A DNA stretch of 64,000 nt. Origin: Pecten maximus. Lineage: Eukaryota. The stretch covers positions 17,360,001-17,424,000 of the forward strand of contig NC_047017.1 in NCBI RefSeq assembly GCF_902652985.1. Direction: 5' to 3'. The translations under genes were made by a program, and so were the position numbers. This document shows positions 23,937-62,743 of this stretch, piece after piece (position 1 is the stretch's first letter; each line of letters opens with the position of its first letter). The notes below the pieces were generated by a model that saw only the letters and a list, made by a program, of their open reading frames with translations, was not told where the DNA came from and ran no database searches.

Positions 23937-26900
23937 TTACCCGACAAATTGACTGGGATTGAGAACATCAAATTTCATTCCGTTTCCCATGGACCCTGAT
24001 GTGCTGCCAGCACTAACTCCACTCATAAACTTGGATGGATCGGTCATACTGGAAGAGGACATCATTTGTTGATTAAGTTGATTTGGGTCGAAGCTACCAG
24101 AGCCACTACCACTGTTAGATCCTCCTCCAGAACTACTCCCAGAACTGCTGCTACTTCCACCACTACTTGACCCACCCCCACCAGAAGAAGAGCCACCTCC
24201 CATCATGTTGCTAGGCGACATCATCTGACTTGAGCCGCCACTTGGACTTGACGAACCCCCACTTGATCCACTGCTGCTGCCTCCACTACCAGAAGAACCA
24301 CCTCCCATCATGTTACTAGGTGACATCATCTGACTTGAACCACTTCCAGACGATGATCCTCCTGTTGATGACGAACCTCCTCCACTTCCACTCATCATAT
24401 TGCTCGGCGACATCATCTGGCTGGAACTGCCACCAGATGATCCACCACTTGAACCCGAAGATCCACCACTGCTCCCCATATTTTGCATGAATTGAGCAGG
24501 ATCAATTTTGTTTTTATCGGGACTGTTAATTGCATTTGGATCAAAGCTACCAGAACTACTGCTGCTACCCCCTCCAGAGCTGCTACTGCTTCCGCCGCTA
24601 CCCCCGGAACTTCCTCCCATCATGCTACTAGGCGACATCATCTGGCTCCCGGATGAACCTGAAGATCCTCCCATTGACGATGAACTTCCTCCGCTTCCAG
24701 TCATCATATTGCTTGGTGACATTTGACTTGAACTGCTTCCTGATGACCCACTACTTGATCCTGAAGTTCCACTTCCACTGGAACTGCTAGATGAACCACC
24801 ATTCATGTTCATTCCTTGAGTCATAGAAGACATTTGCTGCTGCATATTTTGGAGATTTTGGTTGAGCATGTTGTTGTTCATCGATGTCGGATCAAAGCTG
24901 CTGCTGCTACTACTGCTACTTCCACTTCCACCACTACTTCCACTGCTACTACTAGGTTGTTTCTGTTGATTAAGATTATTAGGGTTAAAACTACCTGTAT
25001 TTGATCCTGAACTGGACCCACTAGGGGATGACTGGCTTCCACTGCCTCCGCTTCCACTATTCATGTTTTGTTGAGCTTGCTGCATCATTTGGTTGTTCAA
25101 AGCATTAGGATCAAAGCTGCTGGAACTTCCACTAGATCCTGAACTGGATCCTGAACTAGATCCTGAACTAGATCCTGAACTAGATCCACTCGAAGATGAC
25201 TGACTTCCGCTACTGCTTCCTCCTCCACTGTTCATGTTTTGTTGTGCCTGTTGCATCATTTGGTTGTTCAAAGCATTAGGATCAAAGCTGCTGGAACTTC
25301 CACTAGAACCTGAACTGGATCCTGAACTAGATCCTGAACTGGATCCACTCGAAGATGACTGACTTCCGCTACTGCTTCCTCCTCCACTGTTCATGTTTTG
25401 TTGTGCCTGCTGCATCATTTGATTATTAAGTGAGTTGGGGTCGAAACTGCCCATCGATGAACTTCCTGAAGAACTGGAAGAAGAACCTGATATCATTTGA
25501 TTAGGGTTGAAGCTGCTACTTGAACTCCCCGAACTACTTCCGGAACTGCTTCCGGATGAGGAACCGCCAGAACCCGAAGATGGATTATTGGATTGCATGT
25601 ACTGTTGAGCTTGCTGCATCTGTTGTTGGAAAAGAGCATTTGGGTCGAAACTTCCAGATATGCTCGTATCTGACTGTGAAGATCCGGATGAACCTCCACT
25701 GCTACCATCTGAAGGGTTTGCCGGATTACTCCCTCCTGGGGATGCTACATTGCTAGAGCTACCTGTCAGAAACGACTGAGCAGCTTGTGATTGTTGTTGA
25801 TAGATGGCGTTAGGATCGAATGAAGCCCGTTTGAATACTGAAACGAACGTTTGATATATTTAGTGATTTATAGGAGTGATGAAAGTAGCTGAACAATAAT
25901 ATCACAGATAATAGTTAATATGTTCATTCATCAATGAATTATACATTGAACATATAAGCCGCACAGGAATTAGATATAGACGCAAAAAAATGAATTATAC
26001 TGCATCATACAGCTGTTTTGTCCTTCTAGAACTCATCAATACTATGGACCTGAAGTGCTTCTGCCTAGCAGTTAACGGAGGAAACTAAAAACAAGTCGAA
26101 AGAAATGTCAACATTTTGATGGGGAGGGAACAACAGCCTTATTACTCGATACATTTGTTTAGCAGAAATTCAATAACAGAAACACCATTTAACTGTCAGC
26201 TTTAGCTATTAAAAACTACCTGGTAGTTATTTAACTTACATTTGTTTTGAAAGAAGCGCTGGTTTGCATGTGCTAGATGAACTATGGCAGCTTGTCTAAC
26301 ATTATAAATCTACTGTTACGGTGAATCATGGGGTTAAAGTTGTAATATATATAACCTGTAATTAGACTGTTGATTCAGAGATATCGTATCCAACTATCTA
26401 TACAAATTGGCGGTGCAAGTCCAGTGATATATAATTAAAAGGATATTTATCTACTGAAGCGTTTTGAGTAGAAGAACTTCAAGTGGCAATCGTATTAAAA
26501 GATTGAATTGAATTGAGTTACATTTTAACCACTAATCTTTAAAATGGTTTAAAAACAAGGTGCGCTTGGAATTTTATCAATTTTTTTTATTATCCAGTGT
26601 TATTTATAGGTGTGTGTTTAATACGTAAAAGTACCAGCGGTATAGAAAGCATTACAGTCTAAATCGCGATTATAAATCTATAATACTGTTTGTCAAAATC
26701 AGTTTTGGCTCATCCCACACATAAGGACTATCAAGAGTTGTAGTAGCTACATGTGCGGAACGAAACGAACAACCAAGGGAAAAAAACAAATTAAGAGTTC
26801 AACCTCCTTGCCATGGACCAAAAACAACACATTTGAAAACGTCATGTCAGACACAAAGGATTAGTACCTTAAGATATTAATGAGACAAATCACAATAAAA

Positions 26901-27746
26901 AAAGAAAAATAATTTAAATTGGAAATCAAAACAATATATATATACAAGGCGTACCTACGGAAATAAGGAGGAAAGGACAATGTGCAATAAAAGAGAAAAA
27001 TACAAAGTATATATCTACATGATGACATGCATATATGCATTAGGTAAGAGCTGTCTTACCTGAATTAAGGAAGAGGTGAAGGATATCATTATTCTAGTAA
27101 GTAAATGATCTATTGGTACAGATACTGTACAACATAAAATGTTTGTTTTATATAAACATTCGGCTTTCAATGTTTATAAGGAACAACAGGAATTGTTTAA
27201 GACAATTATTCTATTTATAACCACGACATCCGAAATTTTGTACCACACAACTTCACATATCTAATGAGATTGAGACCACAAGAAAAACATATCATTTTAA
27301 ACAGTAATGACCACTAGATACTATTTATCCATGTGAGTAATGTTCACTGCATTGTCGGGTTCCGGGAGCTGCCGGGAGCTGAGAGCACTTTCATTAGACA
27401 TTTAAAGAGGACTGGTGAAATACCATATCGGATTTCTCTACCAAAAATAAATTGTTTTTGAGGATGCATTTATTTTTTGCATGATTATCATTATGTGATT
27501 TCAACTCTTGTACTTTGGATACCAATAGTATCGTTTTTCATCCATTCCAATTTTGCGATGTCTTTTTCGCGATCGTTACATATTTGCAAAAAAAAAAAAA
27601 TAATAATAATATCAAAACCCGCAAAAATAACCAGTTTTGTGGTTATTCTGTGAAATAAGCTATAAGAACTTATATCGTTAAAGTTAAGGATTACCTGGGA
27701 GTGCATTGCAGCATGCTATGCAGACGAGTGCTATACAAAGAATCAT
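23937..27746 (-). CDS. FDPN gene A: secreted Ser/Gly/Met/Gln-rich FDPN-repeat protein, ~650 aa
   Basis: Exon 1 27695-27746 encodes signal peptide MILCIALVCIACCNA-LP with a phase-1 donor GTAATC. Exon 2 23937-25837 has acceptor TTTCAG and starts VFKR-ASFDPNAIYQQ, in frame with the 560-aa ORF. About 10 F[DN]P[NT] motifs; ends QFVG*. Confidence 0.85.
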
Positions 27747-40184: not shown

Positions 40185-43100
40185 CTATTTCTTTTTCCCA
40201 AGTGGATTAGCATTTGGGTCAAAACTTCCTGCCGACATTGAATTTGGATCAAATGATCCAAAGTGCATGGAGTTGGGATCAAATGATCCAGCTTTCATGG
40301 AGTTGGGGTCAAATGAGCCAGCTTTCATGGAGTCAGGGTCAAATGATCCTGCTGACATAGAGTTAGGGTCAAAGTTCGGCATAGAATTGATGACGTCAGG
40401 ATTAAATGTTCTTTTCCTCCTTCCAGTTCCTGATAATAGAGGAAGTAATCAATTTTTGAAAATCATTTCATTTTTTTTCTGGTAACCTTATTATCAAACC
40501 CTGTACCATTCCGTAGATACTAAAACTATTTCCATTTCTGAAATTAAATCTTACTCGGGTATTATTGATTTTTTAAATGTAGTCTTCCATAATTAATCAA
40601 GTTAGTTGGCTTAGAAGAAGAAAATGCCCCTAGCAGAATAACATTTGTAATTTCATATATTTTATCAAATACTACTAGTTAAATTCTTTGTAGAAAAATA
40701 GCATCATTGATAAAACTTCAATTTGAAGAACTTCATAAAAACTATCATATTATTCTAAGCATTCAGAAAAACAATTGCAATATGAAAATATACAAACCAA
40801 AGTTGTTTATACTGTTGGGATCAAAGGAGCCAGATGAACTTCCGGTAAAAGAATTTGGGTCAAAAGAACCGGATGTACCTTCACCAGATGTAAATTGATT
40901 AGGGTCAAACGACCCACTGCTGCCACTGAAATAGAACGCCCAGATATTGGTAACGAGCAATACAAACATGGAAATGCTTATAATAGACTGGCTGAGAGAT
41001 TTACATCCGTAACACAAAAACACATTCTTTCTTTATCAAAGAAATCATTTTTTATCACAATTGTTCGTTTCACAAAAAAGAAAAGAAACAAAGAAAGAAA
41101 TGCAACCCTTGACACCAGTAAGTACATGATATAGATTCATATTCGTTGGGTTTATGTTATAAAGACATATCTTTTGCTGAAATATATAATCATTGTTCAA
41201 TAAAAGACAACCAAACATTAATATTCCTTATATCAAAAATAACAAAACAAGAAAAAAAAAAAAAAAAACCGACCTTCCCCCGGATCCGCTGGAGAATCCA
41301 CTGCCACTACCAAATCCACCAGTACTGCTTCCGAACCCGGAGCTGCTTCCGTCGCCTCCGAAGTTACTGTTGATTGCGTTAGGGTCGAATGAACCACTTC
41401 CGGTACTGCTGCTGCTGCTACCGTCACCAAAACCATTGGAGCTGAACCCTCCAGAACCAAAGTTCTGGTTTAAGGCATTAGGGTCAAAAGTTCCTGGAAA
41501 TTATCGAGAATTTGAGAATACACAAGACTTTGACTATTTGACATTAGGGCAAATATGATCATCTGTATTATATAAAAAAATCATAGTTGGGTTTCAAAAG
41601 CTGTGATATAAACAAACGAAATGAGTTTGTAATAGACATATACATGTATGCCAATGACGTGCTAGACAAATAAAAAGTAACAACACAATAACAAAAGACA
41701 GCTCCCGGTTGAATCTCATTTAAATATTATTAGCAATAAACTTTACCATTTATAAATAATTCTTATATAATTACAAAAAGATCGAAAACATGCTATAACA
41801 ATACCTTCTGATGATAAGTTCCCACTTCCTTTACAAACTCTCAGCATCGGTTTAACATAATTTGACAGAAACTCACCATACACTAAATATAAATTCACCA
41901 TTTATCAACATAACACAAACTTATCATACACTTAACATAAACTCTCCATACACTAACATAAAACTCGTCAAAGGCTAAACATAAACTCACCATACACTAA
42001 AAATAATTTAATCATACACTAAACATAAACTCACCATACACTTAACATAAACTCACCATACATTTAACATAAACTCACCATACATTTAACATAAACTCAC
42101 CATTCACTTAACATAAACTCACTATACACTAAACATAAACTCACCATACACTAGACATAAACTCACTTTACACTAAAAATAATTTAATTATACACTAAAG
42201 ATAAACTCACAATACATCTAACATAAACTCACCATACACTTAACATAAACTCATCGTACACTTAACATGAACTCACCATACACTAAACATATACTCACCA
42301 TACACTTAACATAAACTGACCATACACTTAACATAAACTCACTATACACTAAACACAAACTCACTATACACTTAACATAAACTCACCATACACTAAACAT
42401 AAACTCACTATACACTAAACATAAACTCACCATACTTAACATAAACTCATTAACGCACAGACACGGAACAGAAAAGCACCAGACACGAACAAGAAAGCAC
42501 CAGACACGTAAACAGAAACGCACCAGACACGAAACAAACCACCAGACACGGAACAGAAACGCACCAGACACGTAACAGAAACGCACCAGACACGGAACAG
42601 AAACGCACAGACACGGAACAGAAACGCACAGACACGGAACAGAAACGCAGCAGACACGAAAAAGATAAACTCACAATACACTAACATAAACTCACCATAC
42701 ACTTAACATAAACTCACCATACACTTAACATAAACTCACAATACACTAAACATAAACTCACCATACACTTAACATAAACTCACTATACACTTAACATAAA
42801 CTCACAATACACTAAACATAAACTCACCATACACTTAACATAAACTCACCATACACTTAACATATACTCATCATACACTTAAAATAAACTCACAATACAC
42901 TTAACATAAACTCACTATACACTTAACATAAACTCACAATACACTAAACATAAACTCACCATACACTTAACATAAACTCACCATACACTTAACATATACT
43001 CATCATACACTAAACATAAACTCACCATACAATTAACATAAACTCACTATACACTTAACATAAACTCACAATACACTAAACATAAACTCACCATACACTT

Positions 43101-44497
43101 AACATAAACTCACCATACACTTAACATATACTCATCATACACTTAAAATAAACTCACAATACACTTAACATAAACTCACCATACACTTAACATAAACTTA
43201 CCATACACTTAACATTTACTCATCATACACTTAACACAAACTCACCATACACTTAACATATACTCATCATACACTTAACATAAACTCACCATACACTTAA
43301 CATAAACTCACAATACACTAAACATAAACTCACCATACACTTAACATAAACTCACCATACACTTAACATAAACTCACAATACACTAAACATTTACTCACC
43401 ATACACTTAACATAAAGTCACTATACACTTAACATAAACTCACCATACATTAAACATAAACTCACCATACACTTAACATAAACCCATTATACACTAAACA
43501 TAAAATCACCATTCACTTAACATAAACTCACCATACACTATCATAAACTCACCATTCACTTAACATAAACTCACCACAAACTAAACATAAACTCACCATA
43601 CACTAAACATAAACTCACCATACACTTAAAATAAACTCACCATACACTTAACATAAACTCACAATACACTTAACATAAATTCACCATACACTTGATATAA
43701 ACTCACCATACACTTAACATAAATTCACCATACACTTAATGTAAACTCACCATACACTTAATATAAATTCACCATACACTTAAGATAAACTCACCATACA
43801 CTTAACATAAACTCACCATACACTTAACATAAACTCACCATACACTAAACATAAACTCACCATACACTTAAAATAAACTCACCATACACTTAACATAAAT
43901 TCACCATACACTTAATATAAACTCACCATACACTTAAAATAAACTCACAATGCACTAAACATAAACTCACCATACACTAAACATAAACTCACCATACACT
44001 AAACATAAACTCACCTTATACTGAACATAAACTCACCATACACTAACATAAACTCACCATACACTTAACATAAACTCACCATACACTTAACATAAACTCA
44101 CCATAAACTCACCATACACTAAACATAAACTCACCATGCACTAAACATAAACTCACCTTACACTGAACATAAACTCACCATACACTAACATAAACTCACC
44201 TTACACTGAACATAAACTCACCATACACTGAACATAAACTCACCATACACTAAACATAAACTCACAATACACTTAACATATACTCACCATACACTAAACA
44301 TAAACTCAACGTACACTTAACATAAACTCACCATACACTTAACATAAACTCACCATACACTTAACATAAACTCGTCAATGACTAAAATAAACTCACTATA
44401 CACTAAACACAAACTCACTGTCGGCCCAACATAACTCACCATCAGCTAAACATAACGGAAGAACAACCAGCAAACAAACACGAGCGAGAGTTGACAT
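40185..44497 (-). CDS. FDPN gene C: secreted Gly/Ser/Phe-rich FDPN-repeat precursor, 216 aa
   Basis: Exons 44440-44497 (MSTLARVCLLVVLPLCLA-D), 41274-41493, 40798-40925, 40185-40429; phases 1,2,1 are consistent and total 651 nt. 12 F[DN]P[ND] motifs, internal GTG-RRKR, C-terminal PLGKKK*. Confidence 0.88.
41868..44450. repeat. 22-bp minisatellite (~105 copies) in gene C intron 1
   Basis: Unit TAAACTCACCATACACTTAACA; its reverse complement contains ATG|GTGAGT. Confidence 0.95.
42455..42665. repeat. Second ~22-bp repeat (~10 copies) embedded in the minisatellite
   Basis: Unit CAGACACGGAACAGAAACGCAC. Confidence 0.9.
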
Positions 44498-46230: not shown

Positions 46231-49200
46231 ATGAGGAGCAATGTGACTTGGACTGCCGTTGCTATGACGATAGTGTTGATTTCCGGTAAGTACCACGTAT
46301 ACGTTTGATTATGAAGAAAATTCAATATTATTCAAAATAATGCTTAGTCATATATATAAGGTGCATTCCCTAAGCAAAAAACGTTGCATTGTTCGTATTT
46401 AATGTTTCAAACATATACGTAATTCCGAATTCCGGAATTAAGAACCACAGTTAATCAATAATTATCAATCACCACCATCTCGACTCATATAACCCCGTCA
46501 CTATGAATACTTATAAAATATTACATTTTATAATTCCTATAACCTAACAAAAAATAGCCAGGCGTTACTTATTTTGAACTTGTCTACCAGTAGTTTGAAA
46601 TTGAACCAGAGGTCATGTTTTATCGTAGTACAGAATGTACTTTTGAACCATATAAGAGCGACTTATTTCCTCACTTTGGCAGCATTGTCAATATACAATT
46701 AAACCCCACCAACTCAAAATCGTATGAACCATGTAAAAAGTTAGAGGATTACGAGGTATTCGAGTAATCAGAAGCTTGTCAAAGATATCGATATCGATCA
46801 CCCCCATTCTGTAAAATCACAGAGGAAATTAACTGAAGTCACCTCTTTATGTTAAGACTGCTTTGGCTATCGAGAACTTTGTAACTCTTTTGTCAGACAT
46901 ATGAAGACTATGCTAACATTCAACATGCATGATATATGTTGACAACAAAATCAATCACTGCTATACATAATGGGATTTTTTAAAATAACTATTTAGTCTG
47001 CATCTATTTAATTGATCAACACATAAATATCATTTTGCAACATGGTGTTATGTGTTTTTCTTTATCTTTACAGGTACCAGTTCAATCGCACTACCCGGCC
47101 TTGACCTTAGCACTAGTGTTGATGACCCCGAACCTTTCCATCTACCTGCATACCTCAGTCCTGTAGGCGAAGGCAGCAAAGGGGTGAAAACCCAGCCCAC
47201 TACTCGCCCCCCTTCCACCCAGCAACCTGCTTCACACAGCATCACCGCCGGGCAAAATGGCGACGCATTCTCAAACTACCTCATAAAGAGTCTCACACAA
47301 ATGGACGCAAACACTCTAAAGACGCTTTCGAATATTATCAATCTGGAATTGAATAAACAAGTACCATCTCATCAGATACAAGGTCAAGCTCAAAGTCAGA
47401 CATATGACAAAGTTAACGTCCAAAGTCCACCTGAGGCAACACATATTGGTCAGTATCCACACATATCTCATGGGATCACCAGTGAGTCTTCAAGTAGCCA
47501 ATATAAACCTTCGACAATGGCAGGAGCTTCCCAAATGAAGCAGGAAGGTCAAGGATATTCTCACTCTAATAACCTATCCAATAAGCCACTTGGTTTGAAC
47601 GGTGGTCAAGCACCGGCTTTCTCACAACAGACCGTTGATCCCTCTAGGAACCAGCAGCCACAAATGGGAACTTCAGTTAGCCAGTCACAATTTAACCCTG
47701 GACAGATGACGGCGTCTAGTATGGGAGGTGGAAATGGTAACACGGTCCAGGGTATTTCTAACTCGATGTTTCAGACTGCTGTAAGCGGTGGCCGGCCGTC
47801 AGCCTCTAATATGGAAGTGGATACGTCATTTGATCCAAACAGACTCATGGCATCGATAGAAGCAGAGACGTCTCAATACAACCCGAATGCATTCATGGCA
47901 AAGCAAAATTACATCACCGCAAACCAATGGAACTTTGCTAAGCAAAACCAGGTACCTCAGAACACACAATACGTCAATCAGGTTCAGACGGATAATTCTG
48001 CCGTAGAACAACAGAAGAAACCAAACATTATGGGAACTACTCAGCTTAATTTTGAATCCTGATATAATGATGACAGCACTAGGCATTAAAGGCCTGAAAT
48101 TTACATTTAATCCCGATAAAATCAACTCGTTTGGAAGCAATGGGTTTCAGCCTGGTTTGTATCCGCAGTCTTCTGGCAATCGGAAGTTGCCGAAGAACAT
48201 GTTCAATGCAGATACAGTCAACAAGATGCTAATGAGTCACGGTGTAGAGCCAAATCATCAGACAAAACAACAGCCAACGAAGGACCAGGCAAGTCAGGTC
48301 GTCCACAAGTCGGTATACAATCCAGATACATTCAATCATCCGGCAGTACACACTGTACCAAACACCTACTTGCAGTTTATTGGAAATGAAGGTAGTGCTA
48401 CTGTGCAGTCATCAGTAAATAACCATATCGGTAATGGTAAATCAGAGCAATCCATACAATCCGAAACACCTTCTCGTCAGCAAAACGGGAATGAATTCCA
48501 CACACATTTATTGTCACCGATCAGTGATATGGGTAGCACGTCATCTATAAACAACACTTTACAGTCAGTGAAGTTCAATCCCGATCAGACAAATGCTGCC
48601 CAACGCCAGTTCGACCCAGAAATATTATATAAATCTCTGTTTGTCGGTGGAGGCAGACATACATTACCTAGCACACACATGACAATATCTCTACGAAAAT
48701 CGGCTCGCGATGAAAATGGAACAGACGCTGCAGAAATCAATACACCTAAACCACAGACAACCAGTTCAAACTCAAAAGATTCAGGACAATCTACAACTCT
48801 ATCGAGTACCGTTACGTCTACCAAACAACCGGAGACAAGTGTTACGTCAACCACGACTGCTACTACAACTGGAGCAGACGGACTCATGTTTAACCCCGAC
48901 AACGTAAATGCAGGCATTGCCCAGATGATGAATTTCAGCCCAGGATCTCTGATGATGGGATACAATCAGATACAAGCAGGGCAGAACACTAATATGGCAA
49001 ATGCTGCATATAACCCTAATCAAATCAATCAAATGGGAGAATTCCAATCAGTGGTGTCTCCCATGATGGCGGCATTAATGGGAGAAAGCGGCGGTGAGAG
49101 TAACATTGGGTCTCAGACTGCCTCTCAGCCTAATCATGACCAGTCTCAAAGTATATCTGTCATGTTTAATCCAGCTGATGTGAATCACGCAAAGATGAGC

Positions 49201-50196
49201 TTCGACATCAACCAGCAGATGGGTTTCAATGAAAATTCAGGCAACGCAATGTTTGACCCCATGAAGATAAATGTTCTTACAAATAAGAATTTAAATAAGT
49301 CGGTCGGTGCTACCAACAAAAACAACTTCTTTAGCTCAAACGGAATGAATATGATGGATAATTCTGTTTTCACCGGAATGTTTGACCCCAACAAAGTCAA
49401 TCAAGCGCCTATGGCAGATATGAAAGTTAACAAACATCAAAATAGTTCAGCTAGCTCTTCAATGATGAATTATATGTCAACATTTTTGGGAGTGGGTAGT
49501 GTTGGAGGTGCTGGGGGATCTGTGTTTGGCGGGAGTTTTAATCCCTCGGAAGTTAATACGGCTGTTTTTAATCCAAATGATGTGAACAATGCACGAATGA
49601 ACTTTGACCCCGCTAATATGCTTGATCGTAATCCTGGTTACGATTCGGAAAAAGCGTCTCAGACAAATTTCGATCCTACAAAGATCAACGATATTCACAT
49701 GAATTTCCAGCCGCCTTTTATACATGTTGATAAAAACAAGGACGTTAACTCTACATCTAATGCATTTAGTCAGTACAACTCCAAATTCACTCCAGGGCAG
49801 CTCTCTCCTAATGGTAACGCTATGGTGTTTAATCCCACTGAGATAAACCAGGCCAAAATGCACTTTAGCGCTGTAGACATTTTCAACTCCACTGACATCG
49901 GAAATTCCATTGTGACACAGGGCAGCTCGCTCTTCAGTCCACAAGTGCCAAATAAAAATTCCAACATTGCGATGCCTGTGTTCGATCCAGTAGCAGTCAA
50001 CAATATGCAAATGAATTTCCTTCCCAATTCAGCATTGGGTGCTTATCAATCCTCTTTAACAACCATCGGAACAAAACCGAAGCCGAGTACCACATCAATG
50101 TCCACCCCTACTTCACCTACTACTACGACAAGGCAGAAAACGTCCATCACAGCTCCAAGTTCTGTTTCATCTCCAAACTCCACCGACGTAAACTGA
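46231..50196 (+). CDS. FDPN gene D: large secreted Asn/Gln/Ser/Met-rich FNP/FDP-repeat protein (~1058 aa if a 1-nt frameshift near 48054 is corrected)
   Basis: Exon 1 46231-46285 (MRSNVTWTAVAMTIVLIS, phase-1 GTAAGT) joins exon 2 from 47074 (TTTACAG). The 336-aa and 714-aa ORFs overlap and share motifs and composition; ~20 [FY][DN]P motifs; AATAAA near 50236. Confidence 0.82.
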
Positions 50197-51974
50197 TAGT
50201 AGTTGCAAGGAAGAATGTGTTTATCATAATGCAAGAAATAAATATTAAATGCTGTTGTGATGATATCTAGCACTGCTTTATTTATTTAATTATTTATGAA
50301 TTTATTAACTTCCATTTTTGTCACTGATCATTACTAACATAAATGTCATACATTTGGTTCAACAAATTTCATGCTTGAACTTTTAATTTCGTTGGTGTAT
50401 ATGAAATGTGACATTAAATTGCTGTGCTGCCCTAGGTCATAGGAGAGATCAAGAAAATGACGGATTTTATCTAATAGTAGTTTTTCGACTATCTCCCTGA
50501 GAAAACCTACCAATCAATGTTTCGTGTTACCACGTTATGAGGAACAAACTGATCAACTGAGAGATGGGTGAAGCAAGCATGTATCTGTTCTTGAACCGTT
50601 CAGTTTGACTTATATGATTAGTGGAGAATTGATGAAGATGATAATGAAATACTAGGCTCTACGCTCGATGGATTGCACAAAATACGCACAAGATATTAAC
50701 ACCTTTCGAAACAGTTTGATACAGTGGAATCAAAATGAATTAAACTTAACCAACAGTTGTTTCAGTCTTATACAATTCGTCAGTGATGCTATGAGAGGCA
50801 AATAAAACCCGAAACAGGCCGAAAGAAATAGATGTCAAAATCTGGATGTTCTGAACTGTGTAACTATTCAAATAAACTAAATCGTGACAAGCAATCTAAG
50901 ATATACCTTGGGGACTTAAAAGTCCACCAGCAGTGTCTACCTCCTGTAATCACTAATAATTGTGCAAAAGACACACAAGCTATTATCACCTTTAAACAAA
51001 TGAGAGTTCGAGACAGTGGAAATGAAGTGAGTTAACTACACCATAATACGACAACGACCCCATACGTGGCGATTTATGCGGCCATAAAGTGCCAATAGAT
51101 AAAGAATGGAGGGAAAGACAAAAAAACCCACAAAAATCGAATATACAATGTATATGTATATAAAAGAGTGTGTCTAATTCTCACTTCGATTCCACATAAT
51201 CATCATCATTACCAAACTTTAAGAGGCACGGTACAATATCTGGTGTACAAATATGGCGCTCCAACAAATATTGAAAAATTATATTTCCTTCAATAAAACA
51301 ACAAAATGATAGACTAAGAACTCATTTTTGACAATTTTAACCAAGGAGAATCTGACCACCCATGGCCCTCGACATGATGTCTACACCATCTGTGTCTATG
51401 GAAGGTAACATAAATGTTGCAGCTAGATTTCGTAGCATATAAGGTACTTTCCTTTTTTCAATTATTTAAGAAACGTATTGGAAGTATAAGCTTGTATCAA
51501 TATATGGGCATGAAAAGACAATAACAACAATTTCATGAAAGAATTTGTGACACGATAAAAACATAAGCACACTTGGCTGAATTGTCCCTTTATTGCAGTA
51601 AATTTTCCATTAAATTATTTCTGTATTCTACAACGTAAGGTTGTATCTTAGAGAGATGGATATATGGTCTCGCTGAAAGGCCAAAATTGTTGTCTATGCC
51701 CAAAACTTTCCGAGGAAAAGGTGCGGTACATGGCACAAACGGAATGCAATGTTATCTTGGAACTAAATAATGCCAAGGTCGACATGTGGTCACTTACGTT
51801 AAGTAGATATTCCTGTACAAGGGAGTAACGGTCAAAGTGTGCCCAGATTGTCCTTCACTCTTGATAACGAACAATGATGTCACGTTTAAGATAATTCATA
51901 TCATATTAGTGTCTTCTCACTTATGTCACCTGCCAGTCCTTTGTCTTCGATAGATTAACACCTTTTCGAACATT

Positions 51975-54900
51975 ATGAAGTGGTTTTCACTTCTTTTCGT
52001 TGTGGCCCTCTTTCATGGGGGATTGGGGAGGAACTTTGCAGGTAAGAGATAGTGGCCAGAGTTAATGGTGGACCACATTTTGCTGATGGCAATTTGAGAT
52101 AAGAGAGTATTAGTTGAACTGTAATCTCGTGTACCCTAACTCAAAGTATAAATACGAAAACAAATTTCACATCTAAACTTTTATCTTTGCTAATTGATGA
52201 TGCTAGGTACATTTAATAGAAACTTAAGTACGGTTCGGAAAGTGCGTCATCACTGTGCTTTAACAAAAAAGGTGTCCACATATGCGATAACAATTAATAC
52301 CGCATCAACATCAATTCGAAAACAGCGAACCCAATAATATTCTTGTTTACACATGAAAAAACGTACTATTGTTTTGCATAATATTAATGCAATATCATAA
52401 TTATTTGGATACACAAAATATTTCATTATGAAATAATATCATTTATTGCATTTTTGCCAGTGAAATATAGAAATTTATCAAGCTAATAAAACTTATATTT
52501 TCACTGCAGCGATGAGCAGTGAAAATATAAGATGTTGCAGTGAAAATATAAGATGTTGCAGTGAAAATATAAGTTTTGCAGTGAAAATATAAGTTTTCCG
52601 TTTTTGACCAGTCAGAGCGGACCTTTGTATTCACCTCGTTGAAACTTGCCGATTTTTCCAATCGAAGCGGAGATAGACAAATTGGTTATTTTGCTATATT
52701 TTTGAAATAATCTGACCAATTTTTGACCAAATACTCACTTGACGTTAGCTATTCATGCACATATTCTCCGATAACTGTAGAAAATGCTTAAATTGCGCTG
52801 ATCAGTCCTTTAAAAATGGCGCCGTCATGTTGACGTAGAGTAACGTCACAATGAGATGACGTCATTACTGATTCCCGCACTTTTTGACACTATTAATTTT
52901 TCGATGTTTTTAATTTTGTTTAAAAGTTTATGAAATGCAATAAAAAGAAAATTGAATGGTTTCCCGTTAAATATAACATATGTTTCACTCGTATGACAGA
53001 ATATCGATATTTTCACGAGTGCGAAGCACGAGTGAAAAATATCGATATTCTGTCATACGAGTGAAATATATGTTATATTAAACGGGCAACCATTCAATAT
53101 CCTCTATGTATTAATGATAGTTACATCGATAAATTGATTAATATTTTGATAGCGGATACAAGTCTATTTTACGCTCAATATGACGTTGGAGGAAGAGTAA
53201 AAAGAGTAGAATCCGGTGTCTGGTACAGTAACAGAATATTTAGAATGCACAATTCTAACCCTTATTTCAGCAGGAACCGATTACCCGAGTAGTATTTGGA
53301 TCAGATTGAAGAATATGTGTATTCCATAAAGCAGGTCAATGTCATTTCACATTAATATATTTTAAAAGAACAAAAGTAGGTTCATTTAATTTCAGAAGCC
53401 ATTTCTTCGATGCATTTTTGTTATGTTAAATGCTGGGATATAACATGAAAAAAAAACGCAAACCCAAAACCAAAAATAGAATTTCGAAATTCCATTCTGG
53501 GGCCATTAGGACGTTTTCTAGACATAAAAGAATATATCGTGATCAAAAAGGATGACATCGCCTAAACATAAAAAGAAAGCAGTACTTGTTTTCTTCTCTG
53601 ATATGACGTCATAAGATTCTGACATTACTGCCATTACTGGTAATTACAAAATCACGTATTGTAGTTACGTGACACCATTGAAGTATTTATTGTGTTAACG
53701 AGTGTTATTTACTTGATGTTTACTAGTGACATTTTCTTGATTTACACTATAACAAGTTAGGATTTTCGAATGTAACATAAATAGATCATTTAGAAAAATA
53801 ATGATTGCATGAAACTTCATAGTCATCTCGAGGCATTTGATGCGAAAGGAGCGCGGACATCAAGGCCATTCTTAATCAACTTGTATATACAAGTTTTCGG
53901 TCTCCTTCTTCAGGATTACGGAGACAGACGTCCAGTTCCGGTGCCACTTCCGTTTTTTCACCTTTTAGTCCAGTAAAAATGGGAAGCGTGAGTGGTGCCG
54001 GTGCCATGAATCCGTTCGCTGCTCAGAGTCAGATGAATCATACCGGGTTTCAAAGTAGTTCGTCATCAACTTCTTCTATTTTCTTGTCTTCCGGAAAGAA
54101 CACAAACTTCAATCCCCTGTCAGGACCCTCTGGAGCGTTAAACCCCTTTAACACCCAGGCATCGTCAGGACAGCAAAGTACTTCTGGAAATAACACAAAC
54201 TTCAATCCCCTGTCGGGACCTTCTGGAGCATTAAACCCCTTTAACACCCAGGCATCACCAGGACAGCAAAGTACTACCGGATACTCCGGACCCGCAGGCA
54301 ATCCAATGCAGTCAGGAAATCCTATGGACATGAATCCATTTGGAGGTAGCACTAATGCAACTTCCAATTCTTCAAGCCAATCAACGGCAAAATTCCCATT
54401 AAATATGAATCCATTCGGATCAAACCAAATGAGTTCAACTGGTTTCTCATCAACATTTGATCCTAACAAAATTAACGGGATGGCATTCTCGGCACTGATT
54501 GGAAGAGGAACATTAGGTCAGTTTAATATACCGCTACTATTTACTATGTACGCTTTTAGAAGCAATCAAGTGGAATAATATTCTTATTTTAGTGTGTTGC
54601 TATCATTGTAGTTAAGCGACAAGCCTCGGGAGGATCTTCCACGATCCCCAAATACGACCCAAATGCGGTCAACCAGTTGACGTCGAGTTTCCTTGACCCC
54701 TCCAAGTCCATGCTCGGCGCAGGAGGTGCCACTGGTGGCATGTACAACCCAGATCAGTGGAATACTATCAGCTTCAACATGTTCAACCCCCAGTCTCAGC
54801 TAGGGAAGCGATGTAAGTTGGGACTTGTTGTAATACATAGGCTAAATGTCGTATGTAAATTACACAAACACAAGATGACGACTCACATTCAAAGAAATTT

Positions 54901-55618
54901 GTAGCAGAATATGTCGCGTTAAAAGTAATTCGGATAAACATTCTCAAGACAATTAGATTCTGCATTGAATTATAAGCATTTAAATATCTAGTCAATCTTA
55001 TAATTGTATTACGGTCAAAAGATTATTCTTTGCGTTTATGTTTAAGATATCAAAAGACAAACTGCTCAAGCGCCAAGCACAGGTGGAAGTATGTCACCTT
55101 CTGCTGGATCAACTTCCGGTGGATCTAGTCCCAGTGGATCTAGCCTGACCAGCGGGGCAAGTCAGACAGGAGGAGCCAGTCAGTCTGGGGGAGCTAGTCA
55201 GGCCGGAAGTGCTAGCCAAACTGGGGGAGTTAGTCAAACTGGGGGCTCGAGTCAGACATCAGGGGCTTCTCAGCTGACACAACCTAGCATGTTTACTAAC
55301 CCAGGGGCATTTACAATGGGTGGTGGGTCACCTTCCTCATCCTCTTCGTCTTCAGGAAGTAGCGGAGGAAGTAGTAGTAGCAGTAGTAGTAGTGGCAGCG
55401 GAAGCGGAAGTGGAGGTAGTGGATCATCCAGTTCCAGTTCTATACCATCATTCGATCCAAACAAATTAAACCAAATTATGTTTAGCTTCCTTGATCCCTC
55501 AAAAGCCCAACTAGGGCAAGGAGGGGGAGGGGGGTCTGGTTTTAATCCGGACCAGATCAACAGCCAGGTGTTCAACTTCTTCAACCCTAACCTCATGATG
55601 GGAGGAGGAAGACGCTAA
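51975..55618 (+). CDS. FDPN gene E: secreted modular precursor, 480 aa, three modules delimited by dibasic sites
   Basis: Exons 51975-52041 (MKWFSLLFVVALFHGGLG), 53914-54516, 54612-54812, 55047-55618, all introns phase 1, total 1443 nt. Modules start LRR-Q, VKR-Q and IKR-Q; AATAAA near 55720. Confidence 0.88.
52441..53107. mobile_element. Hairpin-ended non-autonomous element in gene E intron 1
   Basis: ~75-bp-arm palindrome at 52950-53100 centred on GC-GAA-GC; internal ~20-bp repeats GCAGTGAAAATATAAG; second copy at 62744-63038. Confidence 0.75.
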
Positions 55619-57443
55619 GGTAAACCATAACGTGACACGGGGCTTTATTTATTAGGATTTGATGCATAACATGCTGTACAATTTTAGTCGGATGAATTTT
55701 ACACTGTTAATGCACATGTAAATAAAAGAAAATAAGTTAGAATGCTGAGTGATGCTCCTGTGATATATTGTAGGATGCATCAAAAGAATAAGATGATACT
55801 TGATAAATATGTTGTGTGGATTTTGTAAAAATAGTGCATTTGTGACAAAAAGTCTGTTTGATCAAGCCATGTCATGTAATTTTACAATATATCAAGCTGA
55901 TCACATCAATTCACCAAAATCTTGCGTAAGTAAATAAACCTTAATCATTGTATACAAAGATGTCCATGATGTTTAATTTTCGCTGAATAATCATATTTTA
56001 ATTTCATAAAGCATGAGAATACATTTCCAAATGTTACAACGTACGATTTATCAAGTCTATGAATGTCTCTATTTGTATGTTTCAGGATAAACGCCAAAAG
56101 AGGTGAAACATTACTACTTCAATATTTTCTATAAAAATATAATAAACATGGGAACAGACACCACGTATTTGTGTTGTTTTTCTATGCTGTAATGACCATC
56201 GAAAAAGGACAGTTATTGTTGAATACAACTTTCTTCATTAAGTCACCATTATCGTTCGCTGTTCAACATTAAGTAAGTGAAACTGCATTTAGTACATAAT
56301 TAGGGAAAGAGACTTTCTTCCTAAGCATTGTGATATCAAAGGATATTTCAAAATGGTATTTAAAATAAGGATAACAACAAAAATTAGCATTGCCTTGTTT
56401 CATACCCCCGTGTGATTTTCTTTCGATATATGAAAATATGTTGTGTTTTTTTAGGAAAACAAACATTCGGATTTTGTTTTATGAAATCTTAAGTCAGAAC
56501 ATAATTAGGAAGGGAGATGCATAATAACAAAAACTGCGAATATATGGATACTGTTAAATGGTAACATGACAAAATAAAAATAAAAAAAAATAAAAAAAAT
56601 ATGGCTACTGGTTCAAGGTAACGCATCAAAAACAGTTAAAAGATGGATACTGTTTCATTGTAACATGACAACAAGAACGGCGAATAGATGGATCATGTTT
56701 CATGGTTATTGGTGGATTATTTCAGAAAATACTAAAAGATAACAAAATATATTTCGATACTATCCTTCTGAGTAGAAATCTACACATAACATCTGTATCA
56801 ACGATTTCATCTATATAAGTCATTATCTATTATGTTTACACTAGGGAACATATAAACAAGTCATGCTTTACCCTTGTGGGCAGAGTCAATGAGACCCAAT
56901 CAACTCTTACTGATTCTGGACTAGGCGAGAATCAATATCAATTGTTACACCTGTTGGTCAATTGGTCATTCATCAAATGTCCTACTAATGACACCCGTAA
57001 TTAGTGTTTCTTTATTACACATGGACAAATTACATGTTAGGGACCTATAAACACACATACGATCTGAACATTCATCTGTTGAAGTCGCTGACCAAAGTGT
57101 CCCGTCTTCAAGTTTATAGTAAGAGGGAAATACCAAAACACTTCCATTATTGGATCCATAACAACCACCATGGTACGTATATAGTACTTCAGATATCTGG
57201 GGTGTACTCTTTTCAAAACAACCAGCCTGTGTAAATAGATCTAACACAGACATTCCTAACTCTTATTGTCCTCACATTTAAAACTCACTATGTAACACGT
57301 GGTATACTCCTTTCAGTAAACGTAAACCCGTATTTAAACACCAGCGAAGTATGGCATTTGACTGTTGTTAGTACAATAACAATAGATAGGGACAGAGACA
57401 ATTTCGTAAAGGCTTAAAATTTGGGTACACACATCTCGCGCAG

Positions 57444-60400
57444 ATGAGAATGGCTCTACGCATCATGAAAAAGAGTACATTTTCTACACCGAGGAGATTA
57501 AGTTTCTTTCGGAAGTCTTCGGAAGCATCAAATAATGGCTCGGAATACTCGGATTCTGAAGTTCGTGTACCAAGCAAGGTCAGGAATAAGTATTGTATGT
57601 CTACGTGCAAGTCTCATATTATATTACGACGTTGTCAGTGTTAAGAGTTAATAATGTTCACAAGGGTAGCCCATTATTTGCCTTATTTAACTACAAGTTT
57701 CTCAAGATATATTTTTTGCAAAATGTTTACAGATAAACATTCATCGTGTAAATATATAAATATTTTGTCACGCTTTCATGTAAATCACAACAAAATCATC
57801 GTATAGCTGCATCATGTCAGTATTAGGTGGCGGTGAACAGTACTGTCTGTGTTGACGAAACAGTACCATATCTATAAGATTCATCATTTAACCTTCAATT
57901 TCAAATTCAGTATATCCTTGGACATCCTGGATATAATTATTAATCATATCGCATATTTCTATTTAAACCTATTTGTGTGTCTGTTCATGTTAGTTTACAG
58001 CTGCGAAGTAATGTATCTTTGTGTGTAGCTATGCTGTCATCCATTACGTTAATTACCTGGTATTATAGATAAAGGGGTTTATAGTTAATCAGCTGGGAAA
58101 TAGTTTATATTATTGTGTGAAATAGTCCAAGCTATTCCCCACTGGAAAAGGTGAACTGTTTCGAAGATGTCATTGTTAAACTGTCACATCAAATATGCAT
58201 AGAGAAAACACAGAATGGATAGCATCATACTCATGATTTAAGATTTAACTTAAAGCTGACAACGCAAGATAAAAAGCTTTCCTTTTGAAATAAGAAGAAA
58301 TAATGATTTTTGAAATGGTTTGGAGATGTTCTCTGTGATACAAATATATCTATCTCACGTGCATGCACGCTATTATAGGCACATATCACCAGTCTGTTAA
58401 CTAAGCAGACTTCAACTACAATATCTGCCACTTCCTTGAAAACTGTGACCGGAAGATATATATTTATAAAAGGGAACATCTCCAAACCATTTAAAAAAAG
58501 TATGTTGTTGTTTCTTTTATTTCAAAGCGAAAGCTTTTTAACTTGCGTTGTCAGCTTTAAATATAAAGCAAGTCTATGAAGTGGAGCAACAATATTGAAG
58601 ACAACATATCAATGCATACGTAATTATCGTAATCATAAAAGTAGATGTCGTTCTTAATATTTTAAGATTTAATTATAATCAGGGATATAATGGATATTTA
58701 TTTACATGAGCAAAACTACCTGGTCCCTGCATCTGGTTTGTTAAAACAACGATCGGACACAAAAAAACTACATATTGATATTATTATCATGAATAAAAAC
58801 AGTTCTGATCTAAAATAGATTTATCCTAAATTAAGAATATATATTTACAATGTTTTTTACCAAAATAAAACTTCTATTATACATTAATCCCTTAAATAGT
58901 CAGAGCTTCACATTTCAGACTAGTTTTCATTCCATATAAGTCATAAAACAGCTCTCCATATACTCAATACAGTTTTTTTTCTGAAAAATAAGCCATTGAG
59001 GTAAAGATACTTATTTCGACATAACTATTTTACATAGATACGTACAGTCTCGTAATAAACAAACAATATCAATGAAACTACACGAGGAAAGCAACGAACA
59101 TGTATAAATATATGGAATCATATTTATTAAGCATTTTGGAATGGCGAGTGTCATCTGCTTCATCAGCGATTCTTGTACTATAATTTTTGTGTATACAAAT
59201 ATTATATATATAGCGTTTTAAAGATGGAGAACAGGTTCAGTGACAGCAAAAACACTATAACGACCGTAACTAAACGTCTTGCTTAATAAGATATCAGATT
59301 ACCGAGTTTGAGAACCATCCATAATAAATCCGATATCAAAGTTGGAATAAAAAACAGTGACATGAAAGAACGGATATGAAACAAAGAAAAAATTATCAAC
59401 TCCACAAGTAAGCTGAAAGTAATGTCATGGTTCAGATTTACTCTGTCTCTTTGCTACGAAATTATGAACATCACACAAGGCATTCAAACGAATTAAGCAA
59501 ATTTGGAGCACTGAAATATCCTAAATCCGGGAATTCTATAGATCGTTATAACCTTTTAGGACCTAATAAATATATATTCCATCGAGGCACCCGTTGAAAC
59601 TTCCGAAATGGAGACTAAGCCAGGTGATCACTGTAAAACATGAGACTAATCATATGAGAAAATCTTGACTGAGTTCAACAGAACACATATATCCAATCTT
59701 AACATACAAAAGTATCTGAAGACTTGCAATTGCGTTTCTATTGATGTCAGGAAAACTACCAATCTGGAAATGGAAAGGTTATATTTCTAAATGTTTTGTA
59801 AATTATCTTCAAGAATGCTACTTCATGTACAACTACAAAATTTTTAATTGTATATTTTTGGCAGTTTTCATTATGTTTAAATGTTTATTTCACAGGTCCA
59901 TCAGTTGACCAAAGAACAGATAACAGGTATTGTATTTGTTGATGTTCCTCATTTTGTGTAAAAAGCAGCACTTTCATTGCTTCATAATATGTGCAAAATC
60001 CATCACAGTAAAACTTAAATATACCTTAACAAAACGCATATGATTGAATATAGGTGTATATATTTTGGATGCATGAATGCACGTGGAACTCGATCGCTTT
60101 TATTTCTTCATATTGAATTATTAATTAACATGTTGTTCATTTGTTTATCAACGCAGAATTTAGGGATACATTCCTTTTATTCGACCAGGACGGTGATGGG
60201 ACTATAACAACAAAGGAGCTAGGTCACGTGATGCGATCTCTGGGCCAGAACCCTACCGATGCAGAGCTTCATGATATGATATCTCTGGTAGACAATGACG
60301 GTAAGACAGCAGCGATATGTTCTATTTTCCTCTCCCAAAGTTTCATATTTCTTTAAGCTACTTCCCTGAGTACTCATAATTTTCATACTTGACGTTCTTT

Positions 60401-61625
60401 TGGAATTCAATTTTCAAATTATAATTCTTATTTTAATTGTGGAGCTATTTCACTTCCCCACTTGAACTTTGACCTATTGTTTTTTTTTTTTTAGCTTTTA
60501 CAGCCGCCTTCTAGGTATTAAAACTTTAAACCCTTTGTGTCGCAGCTGAAGTTTCCTTAAATTACGTCACAACTGCATGATGCAGTTTTAATTCATATTG
60601 GCTGTACTGTACCTTATTATCAGCTTGTATTGTAATGGGCTTATGTAGTGTCATTTGTAAATGCATATTTTAAAATCAATTTTACCGTCAATGACATACC
60701 ATTTCAACGTGTTGGGCTGTTTCAGGAAACGGCTCAATAGATTTCGATGAATTCCTTCACCTTGTTGCCAAGAGACTACAAGAAGCAGACATTGAAACGG
60801 GTCTGGTAGAGGCATTCCGCCTGTTTGATAAAGATGGTAACGGTTTCCTCACTGCAAATGAGCTACAAAGTGTTGTAGCGACATCGGGGGAAATCCTTAC
60901 CGACGCAGAAGTTGATATACTGATGAATGAAGCTGATGTCAACAACGATGGAAAAATAAACTATAAAGGTATAGAATGATGTTACAACTATGTATTGGCA
61001 TGATAAGGTTGTATTAATTATTGTGTCACAGGTATTCTTCACATATGTCAAATATTCATGTTATATCAAATGTTTCACACCTGTCAAAAATTTGCTTTAT
61101 TACATCATCATGGAATATAAATAAAAACCGAACGGTGTTCTCTATATGCTGCCTTGAAAATGGCCAAATTTTTCTGTAAAGAAATGAAGTTATAAAAGAT
61201 TGTGTGATTTTTGTTTTTTGAATCTTTGCAGCATATTTGGTTTATTATTATCATCATGATTTTTTTCAACTACGCATTTGATTAAGAAAGTATTGCTTAT
61301 CAGTTACCAGTTGACTATGAAGCACGAGGCAACGTTTTGTAGGTGTCGTTCGATAGGTTGGTTAACATATTCAAATTGAAAACATTTCAATAACCATTCA
61401 ACACCTTATATAATACAGTTCGAATACTTTTGTCATATTGAATTATCCTTTACATATCATGTTATTATCGCAAACTTTTTGTTATATTCTTAAATTAATT
61501 TTAGGATGCAATGAAATTGTATCCAAATCAGGTGTGAACATTACCTATTGATCATATTACACAAGTAATACAAATGAAATGTTTCCTTTATTTCAGAGTT
61601 CGTCAAGTTGATGACAGGGAAATGA
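57444..61625 (+). CDS. Calmodulin-like protein (4 EF-hands), probably N-terminally extended
   Basis: Exons 59896-59926 (31 nt), 60157-60300 (144 nt), 60726-60968 (243 nt) and 61597-61625 match calmodulin exon sizes. Loops [48 protein letters not shown]. The first exon 57444-57578 (phase 0, AAG|GTCAGG) is less certain. Confidence 0.9.
58254..58556. mobile_element. MITE with long TIRs and TTAA flanks (Kolobok-like)
   Basis: TTAA-AGCTGACAACGCAAG...CTTGCGTTGTCAGCT-TTAA; inverted similarity extends ~80 bp (ATGGTTTGGAGATGTTC / GAACATCTCCAAACCAT). Confidence 0.75.
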
Positions 61626-62743
61626 AGACAGGGAAGAACCCGTCACTAAAGTGTTCTGTAGACTTAGTCATTCGTCATGAAAACGCAATATTTCTGTTCT
61701 TTATGCTGTGATAACTACAATAAATCCACACACTTTAGATATGTTTCCTGGCAGGATTTATGATATCTTTATTCTTTGAACTCTTAATGTATCCACAGGC
61801 TGGTTTTCGTGGTGACTATTAGTTTTATGACAATTATCAAGGATTCTTATTACATATAAAATCCTGATCATGTTCTACGCTTTCTCATCAACATCAACCC
61901 ATAAGTACTTATACAGTCGAGCATCTTCCTTTTTCCAGCATGCAAAAAAGTGATCGGATTTTGGAACGGCAAGATTTCTTGGTGTTATCTTATGTACCAT
62001 TTGTCTGTAATATATATATATATGCGAACGTGTAAGAATTATATTTATTATTTACTCTTTCACTCACAAATCACTCAAAGAAATCATTAGACGTCATAGA
62101 CTTGCAGAAATCGGAAGCGAAACTTGATGTTCAGGATGTAAAATAATTTGTGAAACAAATAAATCCATGAACGCATGATGATCTCAGACACAATAAACTA
62201 TGTCATAATGAAAAACGGACTTCAGCATTTTTATCTCGAAAGATTTGTTTTTGTGTTTATTCACGCCCCAGTTTCATCAATATTAGATACAAGCCATAAT
62301 ACAAGATTTATTCCACATCTAATATCGGGGAAAACTTAAAACAATAAAATTTCCTTAACATAAGGAAAATTGATGAAACAGAGGCAGGGATAAATAGAAT
62401 GTAATTTCATAACCAAAAGATTATTTTGTTGAAGTTAGATATAAAAGATATCATAAATTCACCAATTGATTAAATATTGAGTGCATATAATTATGCCTCT
62501 TCTATATTTAAATATGTGCTTTATGTCATTTTTACTTCTTTTCAAACCTTTTGGTCCCGAAGCATCAGTGATGAGTCTTAGATGAATGAAAAAGCTGTAT
62601 GCAGTTTGCTAGTTCATTGTTTGACATATACCGTTGTTATATTCATATGACAGTTGTTATTCTCTTGTCTTTTGCACAATTGTTATAATTACATAGCATA
62701 CGTGTCCTGAAAGAGACACTTGCGACGTGGGGAGAAAACATAG

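Follow-up and report, generated by a model that had tools for sequence, protein, structure and literature searches.

A conserved Asx-Pro/Asn motif unit in a clustered family of predicted secreted bivalve proteins, with a candidate role in gel formation

The window analysed here is a 64,000-nucleotide stretch of Pecten maximus DNA (contig NC_047017.1, forward-strand positions 17,360,001 to 17,424,000; positions below count from its first letter unless the contig is named). Genes D and E, in its second half, carry repeated copies of a short unit with the invariant core [FY]-[DN]-P-x-x-hydrophobic-N, which we call the FDP unit. The unit is enriched in both genes, conserved across bivalve orders while its DNA has diverged, and marks a real, conserved bivalve protein family that is, as far as literature and family libraries show, undescribed. 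Our preferred reading, to which we give a probability of roughly 45%, is that the motif is the sticker of a disordered, secretory-granule, gel-forming bivalve protein family of soft-tissue glands.

A sequence-only reading of the window had proposed a shared unit of about 13 residues, F[DN]PxxΦNxxxΦxF (Φ, hydrophobic), with conserved spacing despite divergent DNA. All ten strings that it quoted were located, with units starting at 49165, 49567, 49669, 49828 and 49981 in gene D, at 54653, 55451 and 55541 in gene E, at 25286 and 25115 in gene A and at 41488 in gene C (A and C on the minus strand). Using 2,000 composition shuffles per open reading frame (ORF) as control, we counted 15 [FY][DN]P sites in the main ORF of gene D against a shuffle mean of 0.54 (maximum 4), 6 in gene E against 0.09 (maximum 2) and 10 in gene A against 0.08 (maximum 3). 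Position statistics covered all 17 sites of 48880..55600 minus one lying too close to the C-terminus (n = 16). Position 6 was V, I, L, M or F in 14/16 sites (P = 1e-7) and position 7 was Asn in as many (P = 5e-12); position 11 was hydrophobic in ten (P = 1e-3) and position 13 was Phe in eight (P = 1e-6). Information content at positions 8, 10 and 12 was not significant (P = 0.06–0.28, n = 16).

For a cross-species test we compared 11 gene D units with four distant orthologues (P0004, P0005, P0006 and P0008), leaving out three close orthologues and one near-duplicate. Mean identity at motif positions 6–13 was 0.51 versus 0.24 outside motifs, a contrast that is somewhat inflated in that aligners anchor on motifs. 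Asn7 was identical in 0.91 of comparisons versus 0.27 for Asn outside motifs, position 6 in 0.52 versus 0.03–0.08 for other Val and Ile, and position 11 in 0.50 versus 0.20 for other Met; position 13, at 0.59, was the same as any Phe in the gene D protein (0.59). Together with the positional enrichment, these values place positions 6–13 above the low-complexity background, the opposite of the outcome that the sequence-only reading had named as fatal to its unit. Across ten gene D units, DNA identity was just 49%, and 31% at third codon positions. Tandem Repeats Finder reported no array across gene D, and with third positions so divergent the repeats are therefore not products of recent slippage. 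Enrichment, cross-species identity and third-position divergence together support selection acting on the unit, as had been proposed; a binding or self-assembly role for the motif is plausible. That the unit is a neutral by-product of slippage in low-complexity DNA draws on the recent tandem repeats that genes A and C do hold (171/159 bp and 30 bp); we regard it as refuted by the third-position divergence of the gene D units and by conservation of the motif across bivalve orders.

The fixed 13-residue length fared less well than the core. Phe13 is present in only half of the 16 sites and in 0/10 gene A sites, and the strings quoted by the sequence-only reading are the best-fitting half of the sites. 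Among 114 cores pooled from 21 homologues, the next hydrophobic-x-Pro lay 10, 12 or 13 residues on in 78 (raw counts without a chance control: 12 in 30, 13 in 39, 10 in 9, another spacing in 8) and was absent within 25 residues in 28. At this period of 10–13 residues, the final Phe is therefore mostly the head of the next, shorter unit, and the 13-mer ending in Phe is partly a framing effect. What stands is [FY][DN]PxxΦN, with a period of 13 residues in gene E and 10–12 in gene D. Units are arranged in a module of 50–55 residues (a long and a short unit, a Gly linker, then again a long and a short unit), and a profile of the gene E module matched a stretch of gene D (HHalign 80%, E = 1.3e-5), so that a module of about 50 residues is common to both genes.

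Homologues of both genes were found across bivalves. The searched part of gene D had eight homologous proteins, those named coming from Mizuhopecten (71% identity), Argopecten (69%) and Pinctada. The gene E module gave 12 matches in one search, 3 in a second and 23 among 1.84 billion representatives; the module is present in 22 of these 23, the remaining match being to an unrelated repeat protein (E = 4e-4). Named module matches came from Mizuhopecten, Ylistrum, Potamilus, Dreissena and Mercenaria; no named match fell outside bivalves, most matches lacking an organism name. The bivalve orders concerned split more than 450 million years ago. True but uncharacterised relatives of D and E are Mizuhopecten LOC110442573 and KP79_PYT10582, Argopecten XP_069116164, Ylistrum LOC132562224, Pinctada FSP39_015528, Mercenaria XP_053389211, Dreissena DPMN_099867 and Potamilus CHS0354_015533 and 015535. 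One module match came from the merc catalogue, which we take to be built from marine plankton transcripts and which would then hint at larval expression. A pattern search for related loci in JGI metagenomes gave 586 matches, none confirmed.

Unit types recombine between genes: A-type units are found together with E-type ones in Potamilus P0055, and the E module occurs at least five times in Dreissena P0068. The Mercenaria model combines a gene D core with E modules in one protein. Both Mizuhopecten records lie on 568,633-base contigs and both Potamilus records on 531,025-base contigs with near-adjacent locus tags. Judged from matching contig sizes, locus tags and the one fused model, clustering is apparently conserved across bivalves. 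Searches of the literature by accession, motif and topic, largely outside subscription journals, found no description, function or family name, and the accessible parts of PMC8561940, PMC5549309, PMC4517812 and bioRxiv 10.64898/2026.03.09.710468 do not describe the FDP-repeat family.

Gene E has the layout of a processed precursor. Its translation runs from a signal peptide through KR, a Gln-started peptide with the first module, Gly-KR, a short spacer, KR, a Gln-started Ser/Gly-rich peptide with the second module and Gly-RR to the stop. Signal peptides here and below were judged by eye from hydrophobic first exons. A KR-Gln start and a Gly-dibasic end are the marks of convertase cleavage, pyroglutamate formation and amidation, and all three are predicted for gene E. 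The sites are conserved: among homologues, Gly plus a dibasic pair follows 23/36 module ends (five others end at Gly, Gly-Lys or Gly-Arg where the record stops, and eight mostly continue into a linker), and KR/RR-Gln occurs in 9/24 records. Neither the signal peptides, nor these cleavage and amidation sites, nor the bivalve-wide conservation had been noticed in the sequence-only reading. Transcript contigs came from four runs whose RNA nature is our guess rather than on record; 5/24 listed runs contain the stretch, and blanks carry no expression evidence. GT..AG joints in these contigs identify spliced transcripts, which we observed for genes A, C and E. An adaptor-like loose 5' end lies at 51898 in run X5, and the alternative exon of gene E (Table 1) also appears in Ylistrum and Mizuhopecten models. 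As separate observations on this gene, an interspersed repeat in intron 1 (52440–53110), which many contigs match in part and where summed depth is high, is likely a small mobile element, and contigs at 53096–54513 and 55620–56113 retain intron sequence in X1, X2 and X3 beside the spliced form.

On another reading, gene E would encode long amidated peptides that act as signals, whether neuropeptides, paracrine factors or pheromones, with the motif binding a receptor and genes A, C and D as derived relatives. A signal peptide, KR-Gln starts, Gly-KR/RR ends and 2–5 copies per precursor all fit, as does a module 55% identical between scallop and Potamilus. The pattern of conservation does not: the module interior is conserved and the last residues beside the amide vary. 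Moreover, the pieces are 60–190 residues long with long Ser/Gly spacers, and gene D bears the same module without a prohormone-type cleavage pattern. Nor did the motif match the supplement text of two ganglion catalogues (Yesso scallop, PMC5996578; oyster visceral ganglion, PMC8398477), of which image figures would be missed. We consider a signalling precursor improbable. Mucosal host-defence peptides processed like myticalins share the signal peptide, dibasic cleavage and amidation of myticalin precursors; with a net charge of the gene E exons of +3, cleavage sites included, and no Arg/Pro-rich stretch, we give them very little weight.

Sequence searches linked the module to no known folded domain. 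Pfam assigned no family to any of eight window ORFs and only two weak single-member matches to 14 module homologues; a PDB sequence search gave nothing better than E = 0.14, and the ESM Atlas no usable match for two homologues. AlphaFold2 modelled the gene E module with a predicted local distance difference test score (pLDDT) of 59 and a predicted template-modelling score (pTM) of 0.16, with helices at residues 8–18, 38–42 and 52–56, and a gene D region with pLDDT 41 and pTM 0.15, with eight helices, seven of them of 4–6 residues. Helices begin at the motif Pro in 3/3 cases in the E model and in most of the eight in the D model, at these low confidences. The suggestion that each unit may be an N-capped amphipathic helix fits where helices start in these low-confidence models, but not their extent: most are 4–6 residues, not a full amphipathic 13-mer. 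The models fit disorder with local turns and no globular fold, and a helix is not established. Complex prediction with four copies of this module gave a score of 0.02, the mark being 0.32, and is no evidence either way.

In the hydrophobic-staple N-cap motif, helix-capping rules put the staple at Phe1 and residue 6, and the order hydrophobic, Asx, Pro, two variable residues, hydrophobic matches N', Ncap and N1 to N4. The FDP unit differs in its invariant Asn at N5, one residue after position 6, which would favour a very short helix over a long amphipathic one; Asn7 probably closes a helix of a single turn or takes part in a ladder-like stack. Three known motifs were considered and rejected: endocytic DPF/NPF motifs are cytosolic whereas signal peptides are predicted here, Kelch YDP hairpins differ in the position of Asn and gave no Pfam match, and reflectin repeats differ in spacing.

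Alternatively, the unit might act as a short linear motif and take up its fold on a globular partner outside the cell (a mucin vWD domain, a lectin, a chitin-binding protein or a sorting receptor), making the proteins multivalent cross-linkers rather than self-assemblers. Its position-specific conservation, above all that of Asn7 (0.91), exceeds what a generic sticker would require, and the gene D core keeps exact spacings across orders. Yet no partner emerged from the analysis, and the calmodulin-like gene next to gene E shows no evident signal peptide in the exons seen and would therefore work in a compartment other than that of the FDP-repeat proteins. We think partner binding distinctly improbable, more so than a signalling role.

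CLCA is a mucous-cell marker. Clues to tissue come from zebra mussel data in the accessible part of PMC9210306. DPMN_177200, gene-C-like by motif and spacer as judged by eye, has values of 66.8 in foot, 6.4 in gill and 0 in mantle. DPMN_161919, gene-F-like by several short stretches matched by eye, ranks first among the gill genes with lowered expression under moderate heat (log2 fold change −5.6, log counts per million 6.0, false discovery rate (FDR) 0.46), followed by a CLCA (−5.2, 5.9) and a GH18 chitinase (−5.0, 6.0); none of the 20 genes listed there carries a neuropeptide annotation. The pattern might weakly suggest that cells of a mucous or gut type were sampled unevenly or were regulated as a population. 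The gene E orthologue DPMN_099867 was not found in the tables searched, the gill-specific table lying outside the search. From its accessible text, a glycine-rich gill protein of Mytilisepta (PMC5549309) could not be tied to the family.

These data also bear on whether the same self-assembling chemistry could serve shell, periostracum or ligament matrix. The family is bivalve-wide, secreted by prediction, low in complexity and clustered, like many shell proteins, and an EF-hand gene sits inside the cluster. A Mytilus shell proteome (PMC4517812) lists composition-named unknowns, among them a GFS-rich prism protein that recalls gene C in its composition. Against this stand the mantle value of 0 for the gene-C-like zebra mussel gene and the lack of Asp-rich, Tyr-rich or chitin-binding parts. 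Motif and identifier searches found no family member in the accessible 361-row mantle-specific table of PMC9210306, which covers genes with tau > 0.95 only and in which long cells may be cut. A shell-matrix product is unlikely, if somewhat less so than a signalling precursor.

Returning to the gland-gel reading, we infer processing, structure, association and tissue as follows. Cys-free low-complexity proteins would enter dense secretory granules by way of predicted signal peptides, where E-type precursors would be cut at dibasic sites and capped, pyroglutamate and C-terminal amide protecting the released pieces. In each unit Phe1 would pack on residue 6 over an Asx-Pro turn or a one-turn helix closed by Asn7, and the hydrophobic-x-Phe stretch after the core would add an exposed aromatic patch. 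The Ser/Gly/Gln/Asn spacers would stay disordered and may be O-glycosylated. Many weak motif–motif contacts could condense the cargo in granules and, after release, cross-link it as a non-covalent gel. Soft-tissue gland cells of the mucus type, in foot, in gill or palp, or in gut, are the likeliest candidate site, a placement suggested by thin data from one other species.

The sticker model is preferred because hydrophobic units sit in polar spacers, with no Cys in the four exons counted, near-zero net charge, no folded domain and no globular AlphaFold2 fold, and because units are conserved while spacers vary (in orthologue alignments, in length) and unit types recombine between genes. The gland-gel part draws on the foot and gill values of the gene-C-like gene, the place of the gene-F-like gene beside CLCA and chitinase, and the Gly-dibasic signals at module ends.

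Several points weigh against this reading. Amidation and pyroglutamate are typical of signalling peptides, and the family lacks the Cys-rich vWD and CK domains through which gel-forming mucins of the classical type are cross-linked. Neither structure nor association is backed by an experiment or by a confident prediction. For the gill result in Dreissena the FDR is 0.46, the expression values are modest for a bulk gel protein, and both concern C- and F-like genes matched by eye rather than D or E. The foot-specific list of PMC9210306 is mixed in tissue, in that it also holds oocyte-type genes though the methods say distal foot tip. In the shipworm crystalline style proteome, 22% is mucin and only 2% uncharacterised (PMC8561940).

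At least six clustered genes bear motif units (Table 1), and a signal-peptide exon is predicted for A, C, D, E and F; one was also sought for gene G and not found. Exon 2 of gene D (3.1 kb) holds 18 [FY][DN]P sites and two Pro/Thr/Ser-rich stretches that its orthologues share. The extra base in this exon is either an assembly error or a null allele. The conserved gene D core recurs in Mercenaria P0070 (43% over 54 residues). Gene A has 67 Ser-Gly dipeptides, and a small signal exon of the same kind is present in both A and C, whose motif units sit in Ser/Gly spacers. Past the window end, genes F and G are both reached within 10 kb. The 30 kb preceding the window and the 20 kb that follow the F/G stretch showed no motif gene, and own-genome searches, which give lower bounds, found no second copy of gene D or E.

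Table 1. Positions of FDP-repeat genes, exons and selected motif units
Feature	Position	Strand	Evidence
Gene A: paralogue with signal-peptide exon, KR site and 10 short units in Ser/Gly spacers	23937..27746	−	joint 25837/27695 in 2/4 runs
Gene C: paralogue, Gly/Ser/Phe spacers, short units in a 10-residue tandem; exon 1, 44440–44497	40185..44497	−	joint 40428/40797 and loose end 41494 in X2
Gene D exon 1, predicted signal peptide	46231..46285	+	ATG and GT donor located; matches N-terminus of Mizuhopecten orthologue P0001; no RNA contig joining
Gene D exon 2, Cys-free N/S/T/G/Q/M-rich protein of ~1040 residues	47074..50196	+	orthologues; partial transcript contig cover
One extra base shifting the gene D frame relative to single-ORF orthologues	48054	+	comparison with 1071-residue Mizuhopecten protein
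Motif unit FNPADVNHAKMSF, opening the gene D copy of the ~50-residue module common with gene E	49165..49203	+	
Most conserved gene D core: five head-to-tail units of 10, 12, 12, 10 and 12 residues	49510..49720	+	alignment A1, columns ~1020–1090
Motif unit FNPTEINQAKMHF, gene D	49828..49866	+	quoted string located
Motif unit FDPVAVNNMQMNF, gene D	49981..50019	+	quoted string located
Gene E exon 1 (ATG 51975; predicted signal peptide)	51898..52041	+	GT..AG joint to 54612 in 3/4 runs
Gene E alternative exon: RR-Gln-started S/G/N/P/F-rich peptide with one motif unit	53914..54516	+	donor joined to 54612 in X1 only; acceptor inferred
Gene E exon: KR-Gln, first ~55-residue module (units 54653, 54743), Gly-Lys-Arg end	54612..54812	+	joints in 4/4 runs
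Gene E exon: KR-Gln, Ser/Gly spacer, second module (units 55451, 55541), Gly-Arg-Arg, stop	55047..55619	+	contig joints; homologues
Gene F: signal exon, RR site, Met-rich short units	contig 17424397–17427600, past window end		
Gene G: Tyr/His unit variants and 12-residue tandem	contig ~17432235–17432830, past window end		

Other features of the region were recorded alongside these genes. In gene A, a 9-base in-frame insertion polymorphism lies at 24964 (X1 and X5). A 22-bp tandem array of about 2.6 kb (41865–44455) fills most of gene C intron 1; on the minus strand its unit holds a GTGAGT donor resembling the one that exon 1 actually uses, a pattern that looks like an amplified splice site. 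The calmodulin-like gene with EF hands (57171–62000, plus strand; identified by eye) is spliced, has two alternative 5' exons and lies between genes E and F. Gene B (38020–39301, plus strand) has a signal exon joined at 38060/38326 and is Pro/Thr-rich, with no motif and no Pfam match. A 535-codon open frame at 33156–34763 (minus strand) has contig cover, low complexity, a 30-bp repeat and no Pfam match. Further tandem arrays lie at 961–2319 (48 bp, 28 copies), where the long open frames look like repeat artefacts, and at 15428–18710 (22 bp, 149 copies). Flanking genes, by eye, include cadherin/EGF-repeat exons upstream and RBM25-like exons downstream, useful as synteny anchors.

Set beside known systems, the family belongs to a familiar general kind, the secreted repetitive low-complexity protein; what is new is its combination with predicted prohormone-style processing and deep conservation. 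Gene E resembles neuropeptide and prohormone polyproteins in its signal peptide, dibasic sites followed by Gln and preceded by Gly, and several related copies, and differs from them in long, spacer-rich pieces, in conservation that is internal rather than at the amide, and in having an uncleaved paralogue with the same module. Like shematrins and similar repetitive shell matrix proteins, the family is predicted to be secreted, Gly-rich, repetitive and lineage-restricted; shematrin-like proteins are described as basic (PMC9210306), whereas FDP-repeat proteins are neither basic nor Tyr-rich, and the one member with tissue values reads 0 in mantle. With gel-forming mucins of the MUC2/MUC5 type it shares predicted secretion, Ser/Thr-rich stretches in gene D and a member listed beside CLCA, but it has no cysteine and no vWD, C8 or CK domain, and any gel would therefore be non-covalent. 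Myticalin-type peptides differ in composition, their strongly cationic Arg/Pro-rich mature peptide having no counterpart here.

The family also resembles condensing proteins of the sticker-and-spacer kind (prion-like domains, FG nucleoporins, squid beak and mussel coacervate proteins, and peptide hormones that are stored in granules as aggregates), in which aromatic and Met stickers sit in S/G/Q/N spacers. The FDP sticker is longer, a position-specific Asx-Pro unit with an invariant Asn, and we found no sequence homology to these proteins. Mollusc low-complexity secreted proteins usually evolve too fast for alignment between orders. Here a 55-residue module remains about 55% identical between scallop and freshwater mussel, with amidation signals kept and clustering apparently kept, and such deep conservation points to a core bivalve function that has no name yet. 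Knowledge of the proteins from which the crystalline style is built is scant (PMC8561940). A more specific proposal, speculative and unlikely as it stands, is that the cluster encodes the non-mucin scaffold of a bivalve-specific gel (crystalline style or feeding mucus), with neuropeptide-like processed peptides and a new Asx-Pro/Asn sticker conserved since the early radiation of filter-feeding bivalves. If the motif is instead a ligand, it would define an overlooked class of long amidated peptides; if it drives reversible gel formation, it would be a short tool, open to synthesis, for work on bivalve mucus or style, and would add a new sticker chemistry for biomaterials.

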